Origin: Neolecta irregularis DAH-3
Lineage: Eukaryota
DNA: 32,608 nt
Reading direction: 5' to 3'
NCBI GenBank assembly: GCA_001929475.1
Contig: LXFE01000467.1
Coordinates: 1 to 32,608, forward strand
Shown: positions 3,511 to 28,622 of the stretch, one piece after another
Numbering within the stretch: position 1 is the stretch's first letter
Layout: every line of letters starts with the position of its first letter
Program-made: the position numbers and the translations under genes
Notes under the pieces: model-generated
What the model was told of the DNA's origin: nothing
The model's input: the letters and a program-made list of their open reading frames with translations, nothing else
Databases searched by the model: none

Positions 3511-4875
3511 TTAGCTTTCAGTAATGACATCAACTAAAGATTCTCCTGCTAAAGTCCATGGAATGCTTTTCAACATTCGAGAGCCAAGATGATTTTCACT
3601 TCCGAGATCGCTTTGACGAACCTTGTAAACCCATGATAATACGAATGTCATCATACGGTATACGGTCCTTATTGGAAGGTGAGATCCAAGTACTACATGC
3701 TGTCGATAACCCATTGCACTCGTAACGTGCGCGACTACTAATAGTGCTGCTGTTCGCTGAGGACAAGATAAGTCTCCGAAACTGGGAGAGGATTTCTTTA
3801 TGGGGGACCGAATCACCGTCGTTCCCTTCTCAAGTTGAAGTAAACGATCTGTCTGCTGGCAGTATATTAAACAAGCTTCATCTATTCTCTTGGTTGCTTG
3901 GTCAGATTTACCGTCTGCAGAAATGTATGCAATCTCATCATGTGATTCGCCCGCAGTTATGGTAACATAGTGACCTGACCCAAACGAAACGGCCAATACA
4001 CGAGTGGGCTCACCAGTATCGTGCCTTTGTATGGCAAAGTAATACAAATCGGACTGATATGCATAAGAATCTTTGGGCCCGTACAACTTGAGAAAGATCA
4101 ATGCAAGCTGATCAAAGTAGGTTGTAGATTTAGGATCTGGAAGAGTCCATGATTTGAGTGCGGAAATGAGTGACTTTCGATTGAGGTTATGCGATAGCGA
4201 AGCTTGAGTTAGAGCACTTGAAGATCTAGGGCCGAAATCTTTCTCTGATCGTTCAGCAGCGTTCCCGGAAAGCATAATAAAATTGTCGCAAATCGCTGTT
4301 TGTTTATAATTGAGCGACTTGCATAACTCTTGTTGATGCCAACTTATCCATACCCCAATACGGTTAACGTAGAATATTAAAGACGATTTGTAAACAGCCG
4401 TCACAAAATCGCCTTTACGGTTGTTGACCCTAGAAAATAAGATGACTTTACAAATCTCGCTTTCATACTCATATAGCGACCGTAACTGATAGTCCCAATG
4501 AATCTCGCCTTCCTCCTGATAGAGCGACCGTAAGTGATGGACCGGGTCATCCAATTTCCTTAGGTCAAATGCGACTGCTTGCGCTGAATGACCAAAATGG
4601 TAGCAGTTGAGTGTTTTTTCGACATATGTTAAAAGGAAAGAATGGCAGAAATATGGGGCAATGACACATCTTGCAGCACAAACCTCTTCTGGAGTTTCTG
4701 TTTGGAGGCTTTCCATACCCTCCTCACAGATCTTCGTAAAATGAAGAGCGGTGTCTAATTTTTCGGGATTTACTGTCGCGACACCAACATGCTCAAACTC
4801 GTTGAAATCATGGAGGTACGAGTTTGCAAAGCAAAGCTTTCCATACAACGCGATAACAACCAAAGTCGACAACAT
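3511..4875 (-). CDS. Intronless secreted hypothetical protein (454 aa) with an N-terminal PAN/apple-like cysteine motif
   Basis: Long ORF with signal peptide MLSTLVVIALYGKLCFA. The motif EVCAARCVIAPYFCHSFLLTYVEKTLNCYHF fits the PAN pattern C-x3-C-x5/6-C-x-S-F...C. The remainder is unrecognised. Confidence 0.7.
   Translation of the reverse strand: MLSTLVVIALYGKLCFANSYLHDFNEFEHVGVATVNPEKLDTALHFTKICEEGMESLQTETPEEVCAARCVIAPYFCHSFLLTYVEKTLNCYHFGHSAQAVAFDLRKLDDPVHHLRSLYQEEGEIHWDYQLRSLYEYESEICKVILFSRVNNRKGDFVTAVYKSSLIFYVNRIGVWISWHQQELCKSLNYKQTAICDNFIMLSGNAAERSEKDFGPRSSSALTQASLSHNLNRKSLISALKSWTLPDPKSTTYFDQLALIFLKLYGPKDSYAYQSDLYYFAIQRHDTGEPTRVLAVSFGSGHYVTITAGESHDEIAYISADGKSDQATKRIDEACLIYCQQTDRLLQLEKGTTVIRSPIKKSSPSFGDLSCPQRTAALLVVAHVTSAMGYRQHVVLGSHLPIRTVYRMMTFVLSWVYKVRQSDLGSENHLGSRMLKSIPWTLAGESLVDVITES
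4453..4538. repeat. Tandem duplication, period 48 nt, inside the secreted ORF
   Basis: AATCTCGCTTTCATACTCATATAGCGACCGTAACTGAT (4453-4490) versus AATCTCGCCTTCCTCCTGATAGAGCGACCGTAAGTGAT (4501-4538), 32/38 identical. They encode LRSLYEYESEI and LRSLYQEEGEI. Confidence 0.9.
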
Positions 4876-5609
4876 GGTTTGTGATAAGTTAAAATAGGAT
4901 CAGGTAGTAAATACTGTTTTCATTCAGACGTAACTATGTACTCTGTCTCAACATTATGTTTCAGAATGTCGGAGGGTGTTGGAAAATGAGTTATTTCCGA
5001 GTAAGGCTGAACCCTAACACCTCGCAAGATCAGCAGCAGCAGACACAAAGGCGGCGAGGGCAGCAGCCGCGGGGGTAGGAACGCGGATATGGGTGAACTC
5101 ACAGAGCAGGGCAGGAGGTAGAGAGGCAGACATTGGAATAACATTTCCAGGAAATTATGAGATGACAGAACAAAAGTCTCTGATTCGAATGGATGTGGAC
5201 AATCAAGAGTGAAACAAGGTTTTCTGTGAGATAATATCTTAAAGATTATTCAAAAAGAGCATGTGGCACAAGCAGTGTTGGGGATGGTATGAAGTGGAAA
5301 ACAATGGTGATACAAAGATTTAGAAAAATAATGCAAGTCATGAAGAAAAAGCATTCCAAGAGGTGGATAATAGTGATTGGGAAGTGAGATGTTTGTATAT
5401 AGAGATGGAAGTTCCAGAGGGATAGTCTATTTTGTATCAACAAGATATCTATGGTATGAGAGGTATTGGATTTTTGTTAGGACGATGAGAGGAACCCACT
5501 CAATTTCACACAGGTCAATTTGATGGAATTCTCATTGAGATATCGAGGAAACAAGATCCTAACGGTATTAGCCATAAACATTGAAGAAAATTGTCAAATT
5601 AATTTTCGC

Positions 5610-14189: not shown

Positions 14190-14777
14190 CACATGTGTTC
14201 CCCGCGAAATGTATGGTACAGGAAACGTAAAGGGAAATAACCACCGCCACCACCCCCGTACCTTGAAAACTTTGTGGCCAATTTGAAGAACCAAATCCTT
14301 TTTGATCCTCTGAAATACAATTGGTACAAGGAATATAAGCAACTCCCAGCCTATTCCTAATACAGTTTTTATACAGGGCTAAAGGCTTTGAGTTACTGCT
14401 TCTATTGGCTTCTAATAGCAATCTCCACTTTGATGCCTTGATACAAAATAGAATTGCTAGATAATTACATCCTGTTCTGTTGCTGACTCATTCTGCTCAA
14501 TCGCTCTGTTGTTGCGAAAAGAGACTTTGAAAAACGCTTAGGGGAATTACCCTCCAGGAACTCGGTTTTCAGAGGCGAGGAGGTCGTGAAGGATGGGTTA
14601 TTTAGGGTTAATGTCAAGTGAACAAAATAAATTGTAATGATTAAGGTGGAGGAGCAGTGGCTGCGAGATAAATGATCTAGGTGGGTATAAGCAAGGCTAT
14701 GAGTGGGTGTGGTGGCGGTGGTTATTATTTCCCTTTACGTTTCGTGGACTTGACATTTCGCATGGAACAAACACGTG
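14190..14777. mobile_element. Non-autonomous DNA transposon relic / MITE-like element with imperfect ~70-bp terminal inverted repeats
   Basis: Left GAAACGTAAAGGGAAATAACCACCGCCACCAC (14222-14253) is the reverse complement of right GTGGTGGCGGTGGTTATTATTTCCCTTTACGTTTC (14709-14743), with a 3-nt indel. Similarity continues outward (GCGAAATGT/ACATTTCGC, TGTTCC/GGAACA) to CAC...GTG ends. No TSD or credible coding interior. Confidence 0.65.
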
Positions 14778-16363: not shown

Positions 16364-18439
16364 CTATCTATAATACACTAGTTGCGTCAACTTTGCTGCC
16401 CGAGCCTGAAAATAGTTGCGCTTAATTGGGACTGAAGAATGGGTGGAACTCGACGCCTGAATCGTAGTTGTAGAAAACGGTGATCTCGTGGTCATTGAAG
16501 TTGAAGTATTGGAGGAGCCGAAGGAAGAACTCACAGAGGCCGTTCTAGTTGGTGCACTCACCCAGGTAGTGCTTGTTATGGTAGTTGTCGAAGAAAAACT
16601 TCCCGAAGTATTCGTGGTCGGAGTTGTAGTATTGGTCAGTACAGTAGGCCAAGGAACGCTGTTAGACGTAGTTAAAGTTGTCGCATTCCTTGTAAGACTG
16701 CTCGATGATGTCAAATTTCCAGAGAACGTCTGATTGGAAGCGCCATTTATCTTCGTGATGTTGCCGCTGGCGGTAATGGTAGGCAATGCGACAGTTGAGC
16801 TAGTCGAGTTTCTGTAGATTGGCATTGTGGTGCTTGCTACCATAGTACTGTTGACAGACGATGTGCCGTTGGTAGTAGAATTTGAATTCAAACCACCATT
16901 TGTAGGAATAGCAGTGGTCTGAGTCTGGAGGAGCAGCGAAGTAACAGTAACGGTTTGCAAAACATCAGTTTCGTAGATGTAAATGGTTGGTGCAATTGTG
17001 ACATCAATAGTGATTTGGGCGTTGATAACAACGATACCGGTCTGGAGAATTGTGGTAGTACACGGTTCATGTTGAGTCCTTACCGAAGGAACATAGCTCG
17101 TGATGGTCATGACTGATCCATTCGAACCATTGTAGACCCCGTTAGTTGGCTGAATACCGATAGTTGATGGTACGACTTGAGTAATCGTTTGTGTGGCAAG
17201 AATTGTAGATTGATAGACATACACGGATGGTGCAATGTTGACTGTGACATCAATATGCTGGACAACGAACACGCCAGGATCTAGGAAAGTCGTAGTGGCT
17301 GGCAGGAACTGGGTAATAACTGAAGGCCGAAACTGGGTGACAGTGACGACAGAACGAGAGCCGGTAATTTCATTATGTTGAACTCCAGTAGGAAAGAGGC
17401 CAGAAGTTGAATTGTCAGATCTTTGAATGTTGACAGTTGAAAGTGCAATTTGCGTAACCGTTTGAGTTGCAATTACTGTGGACTGATAAACGTAGACGGA
17501 AGGAGCAACTTCGATCGTAATCTGGATGTTTTCGACAAAGTAGACGCCTACTGCCTGGAATGTTGTAGTCGCCGGGACATAAGAAGTAACAACAGTAGGG
17601 ACGACCGTGGTAATGGTGATAACAGACGATGTTAATTCGTTCTGAACGGCAGAGGGCAACCCGGAACTGTCAGAAATTGTGGTAGCCGGATCAACAGTAG
17701 TTTCAACGACCTGCGTGACAATATTCGCAACAGTACTGACGATTGTCTTGGTGTATGTGTACACGGTCCGAGCAGGAACAGTAATCGTACTATCTTGGAC
17801 AATGTGAGTACCAATTCCAAGCAAAGTTGACTGTGGAGCATAGGAAGTAACATAGGACGGGACAGTGATGTATTGGGTGATTGTTGATACTTTTGCCGGA
17901 ATAACATGATTCTGAACAAGAACAGGAGATCCCATGCCACTTGCTGAAGAGACAATCTGGTTGTTGATGTTGACAGTTTGTCTAGGTGCGGAGGTTATCG
18001 TGCTTGTAAGAACATTGGAAACGTGAACGGTCTTGGTTACTGGGACAACTGAAAGCGGGTCGACTCCGGAGGATGCGGCTTTGCCAGATGGATAGATTGT
18101 TTCATAAGTGATAACGATTTGAGTCGAGTAAACAGTAAAGTACTGAACCGAAGTCACCGGGACTTGATTCGCGTTTAAGTCGGCTATGGATATGCTTGCA
18201 GGCGTTGTCGGACTAGCCTTGCAGGCTGCGTTGTTGGTAACCGTAACATAGACAGTGGTCAGGTTAACTTTAGGAGTTTGCGAGCTGGAAGAGAGTGCTA
18301 CCGGTGCATTCAAAAGAGCGGCAGAGTCCAAGGACGATAAAAGAGAGGAAGCCCCAGAAGAAGCAGAACTCGTCAACGAGACAGCAGGAGCTCCAACGAC
18401 GAAAGGGATGACCAGCAAGAGGGCAACTAGTGCATACAT
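16364..18439 (-). CDS. Secreted Ser/Thr/Val-rich adhesin/mucin-like glycoprotein (about 691 aa) with four ~60-aa beta-rich repeats
   Basis: The probable start is the signal peptide MYALVALLLVIPFVVG at 18439, not the ORF start at 18721. Repeats follow the pattern T.T...P.V.T.Y.P.TTT....G...V....T...AP.VY.Y..T...T.T.TQ. Many N-x-S/T sites. Intronless. Confidence 0.85.
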   Translation of the reverse strand: MYALVALLLVIPFVVGAPAVSLTSSASSGASSLLSSLDSAALLNAPVALSSSSQTPKVNLTTVYVTVTNNAACKASPTTPASISIADLNANQVPVTSVQYFTVYSTQIVITYETIYPSGKAASSGVDPLSVVPVTKTVHVSNVLTSTITSAPRQTVNINNQIVSSASGMGSPVLVQNHVIPAKVSTITQYITVPSYVTSYAPQSTLLGIGTHIVQDSTITVPARTVYTYTKTIVSTVANIVTQVVETTVDPATTISDSSGLPSAVQNELTSSVITITTVVPTVVTSYVPATTTFQAVGVYFVENIQITIEVAPSVYVYQSTVIATQTVTQIALSTVNIQRSDNSTSGLFPTGVQHNEITGSRSVVTVTQFRPSVITQFLPATTTFLDPGVFVVQHIDVTVNIAPSVYVYQSTILATQTITQVVPSTIGIQPTNGVYNGSNGSVMTITSYVPSVRTQHEPCTTTILQTGIVVINAQITIDVTIAPTIYIYETDVLQTVTVTSLLLQTQTTAIPTNGGLNSNSTTNGTSSVNSTMVASTTMPIYRNSTSSTVALPTITASGNITKINGASNQTFSGNLTSSSSLTRNATTLTTSNSVPWPTVLTNTTTPTTNTSGSFSSTTTITSTTWVSAPTRTASVSSSFGSSNTSTSMTTRSPFSTTTIQASSSTHSSVPIKRNYFQARAAKLTQLVYYR

Positions 18440-19273
18440 GACTGAAGAAAAAGAGAGGATAGAAACATCTGGAGGGAGGCAGACAGGGTTATATAGGATG
18501 TGGAATTGGCTGGATCCGATTTGGGTGGAAGGTTGATGGTCGCGATTTACGCGCGCGAGGTAGGAGTCAGCCTCGCTGCGCGGCAAAGCAATTAATGTTC
18601 TCCCCAGCCACCTACAAATGATACACGCGAGGAAAGGTTTCCTGTCGCCGCTGGAATGTTCCTGGTATATTCTGATAGCGGCAAAAGTGCGAGCAGGGGA
18701 TGCTCCGTGAAGCTCGTGCACGAATATCGGACGGGAACCTCGTCAAGAAAATGATGATTGGCTGCCACATGTGCACTATGGTGAATTCCCACTTGATGCT
18801 CTTTTTGCGTTCCGGCATGGGAAGAAATAGACTGCTATCAAGAAATCGTTGACTTTCGTCGAGATTAACAGTAGGAATGATATTGTTCTTTGCGCCACTT
18901 TCCATAATGGAGGGAGTGAAGTTAAGTCATAGATGTAGAGTATTTAAAGTTAACTGTATGGATATTGGGGTGTTGAAAGAGACGTGCATATGAGCAATGT
19001 GGGGAGATGAGGTCGGGCTTTTTTGCAAGTTTGGCGGTACGACGTTAAAATTGGGGGGAGGGGGGATCTTGGTGTTTGGCTACATATATTGATGATATAT
19101 TTGATACAAGTATATTGTTGTAATGTACTATGTATTCTCTAGAATTCTATCAATACTGTAGGATTCGATATTATGTCAATGTTTGATTAAATAAATGCAT
19201 ACAATGAAATGATGCTACATCCCAACTCCAAGCAAATCTATATCTATAATTTACATGAATACCGGTCCGTAGA

Positions 19274-20215
19274 TTATGATGTTGTGCATGGGACAGGAAT
19301 GGTCTCATAGACGGTTGATTGAAGCAGACCGCTGTCTGCTGGAGGTGGCGAAATATTGGGAACGGGGCTAGCTATTTGAGTAGCAACATTGTTAGACATT
19401 GGAGCCAAAGAAGCGATAGTTTGGTTATTCTGGAGAGATGGCAAGATAGAGATAGATATTGTTGTGAATACTGGAGCTTGGGTGGGCGAGTATAGTGGGA
19501 GGACACATGCTGTCGGATGGGAGGGGGGAGAATCTGTTTGTGTGACAAGAGTCTCGAGAGATATTGAGTCGAGGACTAGATTGGCTTGCGGGATGGGGGA
19601 GTAGGTGGGCAACTGCAGAGTGGTGGGGACAGAAGGGGCGGGGTTGAAACCAAGAGGTGTGTATGGGAGGGTGCTGTTGAGCAGCGCAAGTGTGGGGCGA
19701 AGAGCGAGGGTGCGAGGCGGCAGCACAGTGAGGGTGCTGGTAAAGAAGACTGTCGAAACAAGTGTGAGGGTGCTGATGGCGGAGACGGTCGATGTGAGCG
19801 TGAGAGTGCTGGCAGCGGGCACGAGAGTGAGGGTGCTGACAGAGGAGATGGTCGACACGAGAGTGACTGTAGCAGGCGGCGGCGGGCTGTTGTCGGCGAC
19901 TGGGAGCGGCACAGGGGAAGCGACAAGCGGCGGGGACGGCAAAGCGCCTTTGCCCTGGTCGCCGATGCTTCCCGACCCGTCGATGAGGACGGCGACTGCG
20001 GACTGCTGGACACAGGCAGCAGCAGCAGTTACGGTGCGGACAAGCGGCGACGGCGTTGCAGTGACGGTGACGGTGACTGGTGCGGCAGAGAGATCGGGGC
20101 TGGCGGTGTGGGACAAGGACACGGCGACGGGTGCGAGACCAGCGGCAGAGGGCAGCGGCACAGCGAGGACTGGCAGCACAAGCAGCGGCAGCAACAGCAA
20201 CAGGTACAGAGACAT
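19274..20215 (-). CDS. Secreted Ser/Thr/Pro-rich protein (about 313 aa)
   Basis: Signal peptide MSLYLLLLLPLLVLPVLA. Low-complexity STLTL-type repeats (GAGGGTGCTG recurs on the + strand at 19668-19840). Intronless. Confidence 0.75.
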   Translation of the reverse strand: MSLYLLLLLPLLVLPVLAVPLPSAAGLAPVAVSLSHTASPDLSAAPVTVTVTATPSPLVRTVTAAAACVQQSAVAVLIDGSGSIGDQGKGALPSPPLVASPVPLPVADNSPPPPATVTLVSTISSVSTLTLVPAASTLTLTSTVSAISTLTLVSTVFFTSTLTVLPPRTLALRPTLALLNSTLPYTPLGFNPAPSVPTTLQLPTYSPIPQANLVLDSISLETLVTQTDSPPSHPTACVLPLYSPTQAPVFTTISISILPSLQNNQTIASLAPMSNNVATQIASPVPNISPPPADSGLLQSTVYETIPVPCTTS

Positions 20216-20770
20216 TCGGGTTACCAGCAGCAGCAGCACTCAGCCGTGGTTATATGCGCATCGCCCAGGGCGGCTGGTGATGCAATTGTCGCTAAAAAGG
20301 CTGGCTCTAACCCGCCCCGCCCCCGGTTTTTGCCATCCTTTCTTTTGCGCATCAGAAATACCCGCCTCTTCCACTGGCAACTCAGATGTACGCATGAGGC
20401 TGTCGCGTGCCAGGTTGGGACTGGTGGGAGGATGGCCCGAAACAGGTGGTTGTTTAGCCAACAGAGTCGCAACAACGTGCACTCACTTCATTCCTCCTCC
20501 CTCCACGTTTTATCTAACACAGCTCTAGCAGACTTTCCCCTTCTTAATGTGTATAACTCTGGCATCAGTGTCATTTGAACATATGCCATCCATGTATTCT
20601 TCTCTCATAGATACTCTTTAATGTTTCCACAGAACTAATTGTGGATACCTGCTGCATTCCGGTTTGTAGTAAATAAAGACAGCAACGAGAAGGCTAGAAA
20701 TATAGTTGTATAGTAATTGGTTACCTTTTTTTGTGTTTGCCACCCCAGGCACCGCCGCACTTCGGCCCCT

Positions 20771-23560: not shown

Positions 23561-24478
23561 ATGGACCAATTCCTCCTACGTCGTTCTTTACGTAGGCAAT
23601 TTGTCTCAATCAGCCCGGCTAGATTCTACACAGAAATCCCGATATCGTCTCTCGACCCGGGTATTCCTTCGCTCAAAGAGCATATTTTAATCGGGTTTGT
23701 ACCATCGACTGATCTATTTTTGACAATCCCAACATGGCCGAACTGCGGGCTGTCGATTTGGCGGTATGGGGAACCAGCTACCCTTGTCCGATCCATTGAT
23801 ACTCCGTTATCGAATGTTGTCAAAGTGCAGACTGCATGTAGCGAATGCCATGTCTATCAACTTGTCTCCACCAAAGATTTCCTCGAATTCCGGAAATTCG
23901 GGTTAAATTCAGGAGTCTCTTTTGGGGGAATGAGCGTCTCGTCACCAGGCATGATTTGTTGGAAATACTTGTCCAGCTCGAACATGATGGTGACGCTTAT
24001 AGATGATATTGCAGCTTGTTATCCTATCAGGCGCCAAACTCGAAAATGGGAAGAAGCTGATGACAATGGACTCTTGCGGATAAATCTCGATTTGTACCTC
24101 GAAATTTACATGACTCGAAAACTACAAACGACTTTTCGAGTTTTGAATTTCAGATCTTTGGTTGTGGATTCGGAAGATGATAAAAATCGTTTAAAAGTCT
24201 TTGCCTGGGCGGTTCAGGGGCTGGAGCGGTTGGTTTGGGTTTTACTTCTCAATCTGTATACAGGTGAGATCCAAGTAACCAGTGTTAAAAAATACCGCTC
24301 AGCCTTTCAAGTCGATCCCATTTTGCTCAGGTTGGGCTTGCAACGACATATCTGCAGTACAAAGTGTCTGGGGAAGAGTACCAAGGTCTTGGAGACATAC
24401 GAATTTGGGAAACGTAAGGGTGTAGAGAAAATTGTATGGGATGATGGCGCGCGAGTGATTACTGGATGGGTTTTGTGA
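23561..24478 (+). CDS. Intronless 305-aa protein, possible compact DCAF15-like CRL4/DDB1 substrate receptor
   Basis: Clean ORF, beta-rich. N-terminal H-box-like MDQFLLRRSL; HILIGF...LSIW...LVR; C-terminal LNLYTGEIQVTSV and ...RVITGWVL*. The family call rests on remembered DCAF15 motifs only. Confidence 0.65.
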   Translation: MDQFLLRRSLRRQFVSISPARFYTEIPISSLDPGIPSLKEHILIGFVPSTDLFLTIPTWPNCGLSIWRYGEPATLVRSIDTPLSNVVKVQTACSECHVYQLVSTKDFLEFRKFGLNSGVSFGGMSVSSPGMICWKYLSSSNMMVTLIDDIAACYPIRRQTRKWEEADDNGLLRINLDLYLEIYMTRKLQTTFRVLNFRSLVVDSEDDKNRLKVFAWAVQGLERLVWVLLLNLYTGEIQVTSVKKYRSAFQVDPILLRLGLQRHICSTKCLGKSTKVLETYEFGKRKGVEKIVWDDGARVITGWVL

Positions 24479-24855: not shown

Positions 24856-25066
24856 GGGCGTATTTTGCAGCCAGTTCTTTGGCCCGATTTAGCCGAACTT
24901 CATGAAATTCGGATTTAAAAATAGCCTCTGTTTTTTATGATGTCAAGAGATCAGTGATAAGGAATTGCGATAAAATTTGGTGAGGGGCTGCAAACCGGGT
25001 TTTTTGGAATTATGCGAAATAAATTTCAACTTCATGAAGTTATTGAGCGTGCTGCAAAATGCACCC
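24856..25066. mobile_element. 211-bp MITE-like element (PIF/Harbinger/Tourist-like ends)
   Basis: Left TIR GGGCGTATTTTGCAGC (24856-24871); right GCTGCAAAATGCACCC (25051-25066), 14/16 as inverted repeats. Subterminal near-palindromes AACTTCATGAA(A/G)TT near both ends. TAA precedes the left end, but AAG follows the right end. Confidence 0.6.
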
Positions 25067-25182: not shown

Positions 25183-27251
25183 TCATAGGTATTTTACTGC
25201 AGCTTCGCCCACAACTTCCCCGTTATATAAAACCTCAAATTTGAGCACTGAGGCTGTGAATTTCATCGCTATTTCTATATTGAGCTCAAAGTACTGGGAG
25301 CCATTGGTGACAGATCGTCGAGTTCGATACATTTGTCTGTGATCTTGGGTTAGATTAACAGTGAGCTGACATAGTGATTTGATAGAAGCTATATATTATC
25401 AGCAAGGCAATACCATTAGAGAAACATCATACGATGACTTGAACGCTTAGGAGGCGTTTCGGCAACAGAACAAAGAAGGTCGTACTCATAGCTAGTCCTC
25501 TTCTTGCTCCTTGCGTTGTGGATGAATGGTAATTTGATTGACTCTGCATGCTGCACCTCATCACCCTATCGAATATTATTCAATCTCAACCAGAGCCAAA
25601 ATATACCTGTGTCACATACCAGCTCATACAGCCAGACGCTTTTTCGTCGCCTGTAACCTTGCAAACATAATGCTGATCCTTGTCATGGCTTTCAGGGTCC
25701 CAATGGCAATTGCAAGATACTCCGTAACTTTGTCGAACCTTTCTAGTCGTGACTATCTTCTCACAAAGACCATGAATCACAGCACCACGAACAACGGCCG
25801 ACCAACTAGATTATGAAAACTTAGTTTCGAGAGATACATACGCATCAGAAGGCTGTTGCACAGAAATATCTGGATACATCCCTTGGATGCGACTACGAAG
25901 ATATCCATTGGAGCCAAATCCACCAACAAGGAAAATGATCTACTAACTTTAATCGATACCTCTGGCTGATAGACAACCTCGATAGTCCTGTTCGATTTCG
26001 CAATCTGATTTTCGATAAGGTCAATGACTTTATTTATTACTGGATCGAAAACGCTGACCATTTCGGCTCTGTTTACTGTCAAAATGTTTTTTTTGGTGAC
26101 GGAATGTATTTACCTACTGAATATCAAGCACCCAACCGATATTCCAGCTTCTTCATCTTCGTCGATGTCACACCCACATAGGGTAATGTTAAATTCATCT
26201 TCATCGTCATCTTCGCCAAAATTAACTTTGAGATAGTCGTTAAACTCTCGAAAAAGACTAGAAAGTCCCCTCTCATTGAGGAATTTATCCCCAAATTTGC
26301 TCAGCCTCTTCCGCAAAAGCTTTTCAAATTCATGTTCAAGATAGGTGGCTCCGCATAGGCCGCCTTGATACCATTTAATGATGAAAATGACTCTCAAATA
26401 CCTGTGCCTACTGTGATCTCCTTTATTTGCAGTGGTAGAGCATTTGTAACTTGATATGAGATAAGATCGACAGTACCACCTCCCGCATCGCAAACAAGAA
26501 ACCGGTTTCCCTCCTATATGATTCAAACCAATTAGAGTCGCGAACTCATACCTTCAAATCGACGTGTTCAATATGTGCACATGCAATCGCAGCAGCTTCA
26601 GGCTCTCGAACAATCTCTAGCTTTCCTTTAAACCCGGCATTGACAGCTACGGACTTGGTGACCGCTTGTGCCTTGTCTGACCAAATAGCAGGGACAGTAA
26701 TATAGTACTCAATCGGCGTACAGTTAAAAAGCATACACCCATAAGTGGACTTCAAATGGCTAATGAGATGATCATGAATAAGAGTAAGATAATCCGTTAC
26801 AACTTCAGCCGCTGTCTTTCTGGGAGGTTTGGATGCATGACGCGATGCCGTGCCTAGGTAATTCGAATGGGTATCATCGAGAAGCAATTTAAACCATCGA
26901 GCTATCGTTTGATTAGATTTTAATGTTTTTTTCTCAGCTTGGGCTCCCCAAGCTGAAATTGTTCCGTCTTCTTCGAAGATCATAAGCGATGCATTTCTCC
27001 CAGGTCAATGAGGTTTTTTGGAATACGCATGTTACTTCACACTAGTTTGTTGGTTTGAGCCCGGCCAGTGTCTGATGAGGCTTATTGTATTTGGATCACC
27101 AGAATACGCAAAGGCAACGCCTGAGTAAGTCGTACCAAAATCGATCCCAACAATCTCGTCAATTGTCAGAACGGCCGTCATGAACAAGGATTCTTACGAA
27201 TCGATTCTTTTGGTCATCGAGGCAGAGACTATGTGGTTCTTGAAATTTCAT
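25183..27251 (-). CDS. Atypical Hsp70-family ATPase (HSPA12-like fungal subfamily), about 10 exons
   Basis: IVGIDFGTTYSGVAFA, WPG, WFKLLL, ITVPAIWSDKA, EPEAAA, VCDAGGGTVDLISY, GLCGA, FLVGGFGSNGYL, WSAVVRGAV, SYG. The short beta C-terminus ends ...GEAAVKYL*, with no helical lid or EEVD. The frame is intact after splicing. Confidence 0.93.
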
Positions 27252-27486
27252 GGCAATGTATATGAACAAAAGATCCGGCGAGATGAAAAGGCCAGCATTT
27301 AAGCTTAGCTAGCTCGTCGACTCGAAATCTGTTGCCTATCATTGACCCCTGAAAACCCCCTGCATATCATAAATATTTGCGGCAAACAGTGAGAAAATAA
27401 AGTGCAACTTCTCTCATTTGCGCCTGATAAATTGTCCATAAGTAGCATCACTGTAATCGGTCGACATTACGACGAAAGTTCTGGAC

Positions 27487-28622
27487 ATGTCCAACGTCTC
27501 TGGCACGTACAGCAGATATTCAAACTGCAGAGTCGGAAAGAGAAGCGAAGGCAACGAAAGATACTCGAATGAAAAAGAAAAAGAGTCAGACTTTGATAAA
27601 CGCCATATAAACGCAGAAGCGCGCGAAAGAGGAAGGACTGAAGAGTGGAACACTGTTTATCGAAAACCGAATGATGTTGTTCGAAAGTACCGACTGTTAT
27701 CGCAAAGCTACTCCGACCTGAAAGAAAGGAACAAATTTCTCGAATCTCAACTAGTCTCAACAATCGCTAAAGCTGAGGATATCAAAACCCAATTTGTTAT
27801 CGCAAATCATCCGGACAACGATATTCGCGACGACAAGTATTACATCGACAAAATAAACCAACTATGTGGCGATATTAAACAAATGGCTGTAAAGAATTTC
27901 CGCCGAGCGCCAACTATTTTGGAAACTACTTATTTCACCAACGACAAATCAAATTTCTGTGGCTGGTGTGAAAATATCTGTGGTGTTTCTTGGAGAGAAC
28001 TTCAAAATGAAATGATTCATAATAGATCTCTGAGAATAGCACTTATCAGAGGATGGATGATGAATGTCTTGTGGAAATCTATATTTGGTCCGGTAGTTCC
28101 TTTGAGGTCAATGCATGTATCGAACGGATTTGAAGAGGTGTATAATGAGATGGCAAAAGGTAAATCATATATTCAACATTTCTGATTAATGAAGTTGATT
28201 GGGATGAGGCTAGAAAGTGGCGAAAGCATTATTTTAAGACTTTGACTACACCCGACCTTGTCGAGCGAGAGGCTGTTTCTATACGACATCTAGCAGAATG
28301 GGTGACCAGGGATATGGCTCTAATAACAGGGACGAACCAGTCTACCATGATGAATGCCGCAGAAAAGATTATTTCCAAAGCTTTAGAAGTAGCTTTTGCG
28401 GCACGTTCCGACGATGGGTGTGTTACGATTTCACTTTCAGGTGGACGCATGGGTATGGCTGAAAGCGTGGAGAGTGTTGGAACGCACTCGATGAGATCTA
28501 GGAAGCCGATCACGATAAAGTGTAATCCGGGAATATATCGATCTTTTGATCGTCAAATGCGGCCAATTGAACTCAAAAGCATCTCTTGGATGCGGTCCGA
28601 CGTTGGAGGCTTCAGTAAGTAG
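27487..28622 (+). CDS. Coiled-coil hypothetical protein (366 aa, intron 28160-28194), putative GrpE/MIEAP-like partner of the adjacent Hsp70
   Basis: Charged N-terminus; heptads YRLLSQSYSDLKERNKFLESQLVSTIAK; helical body DDKYYIDKINQL..DI, ARKWR....TL, IISKALEVA; beta tail ITIKCNPGIYRS...MRSDV. A 35-nt GT-AG intron joins the two ORFs in frame. Confidence 0.8.

Follow-up and report, generated by a model that had tools for sequence, protein, structure and literature searches.

Known systems and the Neolecta gene pair

In the DnaK–GrpE system (Pfam families PF00012 and PF01025), an Hsp70-type ATPase is paired with a coiled-coil protein. GrpE folds into a long N-terminal helix, a four-helix bundle and a C-terminal beta domain; it binds the nucleotide-binding domain of Hsp70 and speeds the release of ADP. 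Lobes IB and IIB of this domain are the site of action of GrpE, BAG, HspBP1 and Hsp110, and the BAG domain, HspBP1/Sil1 and Hsp110 are helical proteins that grip these two lobes. Here we describe a gene pair in a stretch of 32,608 nucleotides from Neolecta irregularis DAH-3 (contig LXFE01000467.1), the whole of which is called the window below. Two intact genes stand head-to-head in the window: a gene for an Hsp70-like ATPase on the minus strand (25183 to 27251) and a gene for a coiled-coil partner on the plus strand (27487 to 28622). They are the Neolecta member of a conserved fungal head-to-head pair, in which an HSPA12-like ATPase is joined by a coiled-coil partner that evolves fast.

The Neolecta locus resembles DnaK–GrpE in that an Hsp70-type ATPase gene lies beside the gene of a coiled-coil protein, in that the predicted contacts of this partner are with lobe IIB and with the IA/IB region of the nucleotide-binding domain, and in that its C-terminal domain is tied, via bacterial intermediates, to weak matches to the GrpE profile. 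It differs in several respects. The Neolecta partner shows no direct match to GrpE and is predicted to make its main contact through a family-specific helix; the ATPase appears to lack a canonical substrate-binding domain and lid; and the genes are divergent instead of forming an operon, with no J-protein seen beside them. The eukaryotic cytosolic exchange factors (BAG, HspBP1/Sil1 and Hsp110) are comparable in that the predicted contact of the partner is likewise a helix on lobe IIB, but these have no sequence relation to the partner and none of them was among the fold-search matches of its poor model.

Two animal families are also relevant. MIEAP, or SPATA18 (PF16026), has a coiled coil followed by a C-terminal domain, as the Neolecta partner does. 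Vertebrate HSPA12A and HSPA12B are lidless Hsp70 paralogues, as the Neolecta ATPase appears to be. A 2026 review (PMC13580251), in its passages on HSPA12, describes HspA12A/B as proteins without a helical lid, of unknown function and untested mechanism, that are massively expanded in bivalves; these passages name no cofactor for HSPA12.

Our literature searches found no link between MIEAP and HSPA12 or between MIEAP and GrpE, nothing on HSPA12-like genes in Neolecta or on a fungal HSPA12 with a coiled-coil partner, and no paper joining any two of MIEAP, DUF641, GIL1 and IRKI. In one paper that mentions both SPATA18 and HSPA12A, the two are only unrelated proteomics entries. No paper on bacterial HSPA12-type operons was found in these searches, none of which sought them by name. 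The Hsp70 passages of an eLife 2020 paper on conflict systems concern prokaryotic GTPase systems.

Conservation of the pair within and beyond Neolecta

Direct searches found the partner family in Neolecta only. An exhaustive phmmer search of 1.84 billion representatives returned three proteins, all from Neolecta: the partner itself (P0001) and its paralogues P0122 (406 aa, 39% identity) and P0123 (401 aa, 35% identity). A word-index search with exon 1 of the partner gave only the partner itself (1 of 95 candidates), and a search with the three-member profile gave only two Neolecta members (2 of 6,010 candidates). None of 390 pattern matches from a metagenome scan with the partner profile was confirmed. 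All three members of the family lie on contigs that carry an HSPA12-like gene. The two paralogues share one contig of 6,956 bp with a paralogous ATPase, P0003 (accessions OLL26368 for P0123, OLL26370 for P0122 and OLL26371 for P0003), and the accessions of P0122 and P0003 are consecutive.

Beyond Neolecta, metagenomic loci were collected by a scan with the ATPase alignment. A relative was encoded by 472 of the 590 pattern matches, and the best 80 loci (28–39% identity) were used. When the Neolecta-only partner profile was compared with the 6,311 six-frame open reading frames (ORFs) of these loci, the best E value was 7.7e-6, and the ten best-placed matches were all minus-strand ORFs directly upstream of a plus-strand ATPase gene. 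Independent clustering of the flanking ORFs by blastp grouped 10 ORFs from 8 loci into one family, every one of them upstream and divergent. Comparison of the three Neolecta partners with 8 of the upstream ORFs by hhalign gave a probability of 94.0% (E 1.4e-7) over 274 columns. This match spans residues 58–359, taking in both the helix motif and the C-terminal domain described below.

One profile iteration increased the matches to 25 at E<1. Twenty-four of them were upstream and divergent, a class that holds 9.9% of all ORFs; the exception lay at a contig end. After a second iteration 28 of 32 matches had this arrangement, with no locus added to it. The enlarged profile matched only the two exons of the partner in the Neolecta window. 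A preference of partner homologues for a place beside HSPA12-like genes, on which the original prediction depended, was therefore found both in Neolecta (3 of 3 members) and in 19 metagenomic loci.

Where at least 800 nt of upstream DNA was present, the partner was detected in 19 of 43 loci; where at least 1,500 nt was present, in 18 of 36. In a FastTree phylogeny of the ATPases, a single tight clade held 11 of the 18 negative loci. The rest of the tree held the 19 positive loci and 7 negative ones, interleaved with named homologues from Ascomycota. Members of the tight clade have an extra same-strand ORF directly upstream, which is probably an N-terminal extension. In one of them the enlarged partner profile matches an ORF (L124:6121-7308, plus strand, E 1.9e-5) that lies 2.7 kb upstream, and the arrangement there may be tandem instead of divergent.

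The distances among partners were correlated with those among ATPases (Pearson 0.73, Spearman 0.30, 147 of 153 locus pairs), and 0 of 5,000 permutations reached the observed value. This comparison used 18 partner–ATPase pairs, one of which (L084) is not adjacent. At that locus the contig ends in a strong partner-family ORF (L084:9435-10106, minus strand, E 5.5e-26), which is 4.4 kb downstream of the ATPase gene; the divergent neighbour of this ORF would fall outside the contig.

The HSPA12-like ATPase

The ATPase matches the Pfam HSP70 family above the cut-off (33.6 and 40.4 bits against 20.6), and the match covers the nucleotide-binding domain only (profile positions 1–336 and 1–371 of 599). 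Hsp70 matches in the PDB were confined to the same domain, with residues 4–382 of DnaK aligned to residues 19–400 of P0003. No PDB match extended beyond it. Both phosphate loops, the EPEAAA motif and the GGFG adenosine motif are kept, and they are conserved across 43 fungal homologues. The C-terminus does not carry EEVD. The claim that this protein keeps all ATPase motifs was confirmed, as was the claim that it lacks the helical lid and EEVD, the HSP70 profile match being limited to the nucleotide-binding domain.

Relatives of this ATPase are common in Ascomycota (358 proteins at E<=0.001 among 1,559 candidates). The source databases name the Neolecta proteins and several of these relatives 'heat shock protein 12A/12B' or HSPA12A-like. 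By its motifs and domain content, the ATPase would be a lidless Hsp70 of the HSPA12 type; kinship to animal HSPA12A and HSPA12B is suggested by database name only.

The partner protein

The partner has no match to a Pfam family and no sequence relative in the PDB; its paralogues P0122 and P0123 gave only coiled-coil-type noise in Pfam. A PDB search with the Neolecta-only profile returned just a coiled-coil adhesin at E 3.4. The three Neolecta proteins share 74 invariant columns, which are densest at residues 98–140, 179–206, 230–250 and 317–351. The first of these blocks (27778 to 27906, plus strand) is the most conserved in the family and is the predicted main contact with the ATPase. Its helix motif is also conserved in the metagenomic relatives. 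Residues 31–101 (27577 to 27789, plus strand) form long helices in the low-confidence secondary structure from AlphaFold2 (AF2) and presumably make up the coiled coil. Residues 271–366 (28332 to 28619, plus strand) form the C-terminal domain, which bears a remote likeness to the MIEAP/GrpE-like C-terminal domain of the partners of bacterial HSPA12-type ATPases.

The order of domains in the partner had been described as a long coiled coil, a helical bundle and a small beta domain. The low-confidence AF2 model (pLDDT, the per-residue model confidence, of 48) has helices at residues 31–101 and 113–297 and nothing for residues 298–366, so that the small beta domain does not appear in it. A Foldseek search of the PDB with this poor model (pLDDT 48) returned nothing at E<=0.001.

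Among the neighbours of P0001 in the ESM Atlas were an unnamed Ascomycota cluster of 4,377 members (score 0.95) and a second unnamed Ascomycota cluster of 90 members, which was the best structural neighbour (template-modelling (TM) score 0.51). An apparent Neolecta orphan would belong to a large fungal family, with Atlas clusters of up to 4,377 members, that sequence searches miss.

Predicted complex of the two proteins

We predicted the complex of P0001 with residues 1–490 of P0002, the GenBank version of the ATPase. The prediction ran without the supplied alignments. Its interface score (ipSAE) was 0.67, 0.65 and 0.66 in three runs, compared with 0.29, 0.00 and 0.00 for three controls. The runs agreed in at least 77% of contacts, and the pLDDT of the partner was at least 67. 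When this test was calibrated, 51 of 78 solved complexes and 2 of 108 mismatched pairs came up to the mark.

On the partner side, the predicted interface consists of residues 100–140 and 180–184, with a few residues within 279–351. Interface residues were more often invariant (16 of 34) than residues elsewhere (58 of 332; Fisher p 1.9e-4), and this held within residues 98–351 (p 0.0036). On the ATPase side, the interface takes in residues 26–49 and 133–142 and, above all, 277–315. By alignment to yeast Kar2/BiP, residues 277–315 correspond to a helix plus a hairpin of lobe IIB. An interface between partner and ATPase had been expected in the original prediction, and the models agree with it (ipSAE 0.66 against 0.29 for the best control). 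The partner is probably a dedicated cofactor that binds the ATPase.

Bacterial counterparts and the relation to GrpE and MIEAP

A genome scan gave 80 bacterial loci, mostly from cyanobacteria and actinobacteria, whose ATPases belong to the same subfamily as the Neolecta ATPase (25–30% identity). ORF calling recovered the ATPase in 61 of them. In 31 of these 61 loci, the next downstream ORF, on the same strand and within 150 nt, fell into one of two families of coiled-coil proteins (16 and 15 loci). The two families have related C-terminal domains (hhalign 97.9%, E 6e-13). The bacterial operons resemble the fungal pair in their ATPase, in the adjoining coiled-coil partner and in a matching C-terminal domain. 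They differ in that the genes are on the same strand, in many cases accompanied by others (for AAA+, a zinc-ribbon coiled-coil protein, a second Hsp70-like protein or patatin), and in that the middle region of the fungal partner, with its predicted contact helix, has no detectable counterpart in them.

When 34 C-terminal segments of the bacterial partners were searched against Pfam, five matched MIEAP (best E 3.8e-6), in the C-terminal half of the profile, and five matched GrpE (best E 0.024, below the Pfam cut-off). Apart from these two, no Pfam family was matched by more than one segment. In PDB searches with the bacterial partner profiles, coiled-coil matches crowded out others, and the matches listed included no GrpE chain.

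The enlarged fungal profile could be aligned with the cyanobacterial partner family by hhalign (93.3%, E 2.8e-7, 83 columns). This alignment places residues 271–366 of P0001 on the last 83 residues (437–519) of the partner at cyanobacterial locus L001. With whole-length bacterial templates, the same profile gave 73% (12 sequences) and 92% (20 sequences).

In the ESM Atlas, the nearest named clusters were those of MIEAP, with scores of 0.85, 0.84 and 0.84 for P0122 and 0.81 for P0001, all below the bar of 0.9. The structural comparison gave a MIEAP cluster with a TM score of 0.44, and a plant DUF641/GIL1_IRKI_C cluster appeared at 0.77; both were below the bar. We treat the MIEAP neighbours as leads only. 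No fungal partner matches the Pfam MIEAP profile, and neither the C-terminal piece of the partner alone nor nine C-terminal segments (E up to 10) matched GrpE or MIEAP in Pfam.

On our reading, the C-terminal domain of the partner probably falls into a diffuse GrpE/MIEAP-like superfamily. The label GrpE/MIEAP-like in the original prediction can be kept in an indirect sense only, through the bacterial partner domain; the Neolecta protein itself matches neither family.

The HSPA12-type genes of the cyanobacterial loci (L001–L016, for example L002:2434-11232) are in larger same-strand clusters. The order there is a double AAA+ ATPase of 840–880 aa, a zinc-ribbon coiled-coil protein of about 300 aa, an Hsp70-like gene, the partner and a second Hsp70-like gene. 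The cyanobacterial partner is a coiled-coil protein of about 520–610 aa with a MIEAP/GrpE-like end. Several actinobacterial HSPA12-type loci have a patatin-like gene nearby.

Proposed function and alternative explanations

We consider it fairly probable, though well short of certain, that the conserved fungal pair encodes an HSPA12-type ATPase and its dedicated protein partner, which would most likely regulate nucleotide exchange. The ATPase would consist of a nucleotide-binding domain and a non-canonical C-terminal region without a helical lid. The conserved helix of the partner (residues 113–140 or so), together with parts of its C-terminal domain, would clamp lobe IIB and the IA/IB hairpin, a surface that known nucleotide-exchange factors of Hsp70 use. 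In this position, the partner may regulate nucleotide exchange or the opening of the cleft in a manner analogous to GrpE, while its coiled coil may dimerise or tether the complex. The analysis shows the gene structures, the family relations, the conserved head-to-head synteny, the co-divergence of the two proteins and the remote similarity of the C-terminal domain to bacterial partners; binding, which is supported in silico, is inferred, as are the exchange-factor activity of the partner and the cellular role of the pair. If the proposal holds, the partner would be the first candidate cofactor for the widespread and poorly understood HSPA12 family. A linked and apparently co-diverging partner provides a hypothesis for the bench (binding, nucleotide release) and a route to equivalents in other lineages.

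Several observations weigh against this explanation. With regard to the pairing, the linkage on the 6,956-bp contig is a shared contig only, in which gene orientation is not visible, and Neolecta alone cannot separate functional linkage from segmental duplication. The metagenomic loci are presumably fungal, judging by their similarity to named fungal proteins. No partner was detectable in 24 of the 43 loci with enough upstream DNA. The correlated distances show joint inheritance and not interaction, because any two linked, vertically inherited genes would correlate.

With regard to the complex, the test was also passed by 7 of 44 neighbours drawn blind, and it was calibrated mostly on microbes. 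The interface residues of the ATPase were identical to those of the paralogue in 28 of 36 positions against 314 of 454 elsewhere, a difference that is not significant, and across other fungi they were less conserved than the rest (17% against 33% identity). The AF2 models of the partner itself were poor (pLDDT 36 with a single sequence and 48 with three sequences), and fold searches with such a poor model returned generic helical matches only, with no GrpE listed.

With regard to the comparison with GrpE and MIEAP, neither Pfam profile matched P0001, P0122 or P0123 (E up to 10) or the 10 metagenomic relatives (E up to 1). GrpE did not appear in PDB sequence searches with fungal or bacterial profiles. 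The Neolecta-only profile was not linked to the bacterial partners (hhalign at most 7.5%; best hmmsearch E 0.062). Even with the enlarged profile, the link between fungi and bacteria depended on how the alignment was cut, falling to 16% and 40% with a C-terminal-only template, and the actinobacterial partner family was matched at no more than 28%.

Among other explanations, the partner might be a client, an effector or a sensor in a two-gene conflict or stress module, in which the ATPase holds, remodels or activates it, much as ATPases gate effectors in immune-type systems. The partner evolves at a much higher rate than the ATPase (mean p-distance 0.83 against 0.62); the Neolecta paralogues are 35–39% identical for the partner and 69% for the ATPase, and the partner family is locally expanded in Neolecta. 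The bacterial relatives are in larger operons with AAA+ and patatin genes, and the predicted interface would suit a client as well as a cofactor. However, PADLOC gave no match for the ATPase, the partner or their bacterial relatives, and Pfam found no enzymatic or toxin-like domain in the partner. In addition, conservation within the partner is highest in the predicted contact helix and not in a separate effector part. We therefore regard such a module as unlikely. The role in stress, defence or non-self recognition that had been suggested for the pair gained no support from the PADLOC searches.

A second alternative is that the two genes share a bidirectional promoter and nothing else, so that they are co-regulated and co-inherited while their products make no contact. 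Shared regulatory DNA can keep head-to-head pairs together, correlated divergence follows from linkage alone, and the pass rate among neighbours drawn blind would fit as well. Promoter sharing cannot explain why the pairing also exists in bacteria, where it takes the form of same-strand operons and the partners share the C-terminal domain. The complex score was 0.37 above that of the best control, and the predicted contact lies on the most conserved block of the partner. Sharing of a promoter without contact thus appears quite improbable.

We give very little weight to a third possibility, that the partner really belongs to the GrpE family (PF01025), from which it has merely diverged, and that the pair is an ordinary Hsp70–GrpE pair. 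The order of coiled coil, helical part and C-terminal domain in the low-confidence model resembles GrpE, and the bacterial counterparts match the GrpE profile weakly, as described above. Yet the Neolecta and metagenomic proteins do not, no GrpE chain appeared in PDB profile searches or was listed in either of the two fold searches, and the helix predicted to make the main contact is family-specific, with no counterpart in the alignment with bacterial partners. It is equally hard to credit that the Neolecta adjacency merely remains from a segmental duplication and that coiled-coil composition accounts for the matches elsewhere: all direct homologues are indeed in one genome and coiled coils do draw spurious profile matches, but the 274-column hhalign match includes parts that are not coiled coil, the metagenomic matches are position-specific (24 of 25 against a background of 9.9%), and the enlarged profile matches nothing in the Neolecta window other than the two exons of the partner.

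The explanation we prefer, an ATPase with a dedicated partner that regulates it, might be part of a wider relationship. HSPA12-type ATPases and MIEAP-like coiled-coil proteins might form one ancient two-component machine, derived from a DnaK–GrpE-like pair, that is kept as an operon in bacteria and head-to-head in fungi and is unlinked in animals (HSPA12A/B and MIEAP/SPATA18). We offer this as a speculation that we ourselves doubt more than we believe. If it were true, each family would supply what the other lacks, a cofactor for HSPA12 and a biochemical activity for the 'mitochondria-eating protein' domain, and both families would be expected to be expanded in molluscs. The HSPA12 family is expanded in bivalves according to the review cited above (PMC13580251), and the MIEAP clusters of the ESM Atlas are commonest in Mollusca. 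Should the remote link to MIEAP hold, an animal protein that is regulated by p53 and whose biochemistry is unclear would be tied to the control of Hsp70-type ATPases.

Gene models

The ATPase gene (25183 to 27251, minus strand) was modelled with 10 exons encoding a lidless Hsp70-type protein of 568 aa. The exons are 27251–27198, 27154–27036, 26996–26552, 26513–26402, 26363–26114, 26068–25978, 25939–25842, 25805–25607, 25565–25433 and 25388–25183, the last including the stop codon. The nine introns are all GT..AG introns of 36–45 nt. The product aligns collinearly with P0003, its Neolecta paralogue of 567 aa ('Heat shock protein 12B'), residues 1–567 aligning with 1–566 at 69% identity with 1 gap.

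GenBank has this ATPase as P0002 ('Heat shock protein 12A', 496 aa), which is identical to our model across 482 residues. P0002 starts at 27181 instead of 27251, and it lacks the last intron (25432–25389) and the last exon (25388–25183). This final exon is conserved, being present in P0003. P0002 appears to have been mis-modelled, with the first exon missing and the last intron read through, because the 568-aa model, unlike P0002, is collinear end to end with P0003. The start at 27251 and the 5′ exon are proposed solely from this collinearity. An alternative model with the start at 27181 and a different fifth intron (560 aa) was dropped in favour of the 10-exon model collinear with P0003.

The partner gene (NEOLI_001685; 27487 to 28622, plus strand) has two exons, 27487–28159 and 28195–28622 (stop codon included). 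Splicing them over the 35-nt GT..AG intron (28160–28194) gives exactly the database protein P0001 of 366 aa, and the splice junction is collinear with the paralogues P0122 and P0123. These models confirm that there are two intact genes; with the proposed start at 27251, their start codons (27251 and 27487) are separated by 235 bp, as had been reported from the sequence. The ten introns of both genes, all of the GT..AG type, are very short at 35–45 nt, which is apparently a genome-wide trait.

Spacer, flanks and the rest of the window

The spacer between the divergent start codons (27252 to 27486) is 235 bp long with the ATPase start at 27251; with the start at 27181 the spacing would be 305 bp. 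It presumably contains a promoter region shared by the two genes. Words resembling the heat shock element (HSE) at 27237–27249 and 27474–27486 (a perfect GAAnnTTCnnGAA and a copy with one mismatch) bracket the spacer. The number of HSE-like words in the window, 14 against 13.9 expected, is at the level of chance. The word at 27237–27249 lies inside the proposed first coding exon of the ATPase gene; with the start at 27181, it would be about 60 nt upstream of the start codon.

The pair had been described as bounded by a miniature inverted-repeat transposable element (MITE) on the left and by repeat debris on the right. On the left, just past the 3′ end of the ATPase gene and outside the system, there is an imperfect nested inverted repeat (24856 to 25066) with arms of 16 nt (88%) and 22 nt (82%), but no second copy of it is present within the window. 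The repeat debris on the right was not borne out, since only short repeats at chance level were found there. The longest inverted repeat of the window, at 14196–14769, has 59-nt arms (81% complementary) that are 456 nt apart; it is a better candidate for a MITE or foldback element than the repeat at 24856–25066 beside the gene pair.

Three long open frames, at 16364–18742 (minus strand, 792 aa), 3511–4899 (minus strand, 462 aa) and 23561–24478 (plus strand, 305 aa), matched no Pfam family. The last of them lies just left of the pair, on the strand opposite to the ATPase gene. A G+C-rich stretch at 19274–20578 (GC 0.51–0.53) has a strong GC skew and long open frames on both strands, and one of these (19580–20578, plus strand) matched nothing in Pfam. 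A 49-nt repeat occurs three times within this stretch (19719–19866). The other genes of the window code for ordinary proteins: an EF-G-like GTPase, a fungal transcription factor, an amino-acid permease, a GATA factor and a GH76 glycosidase.

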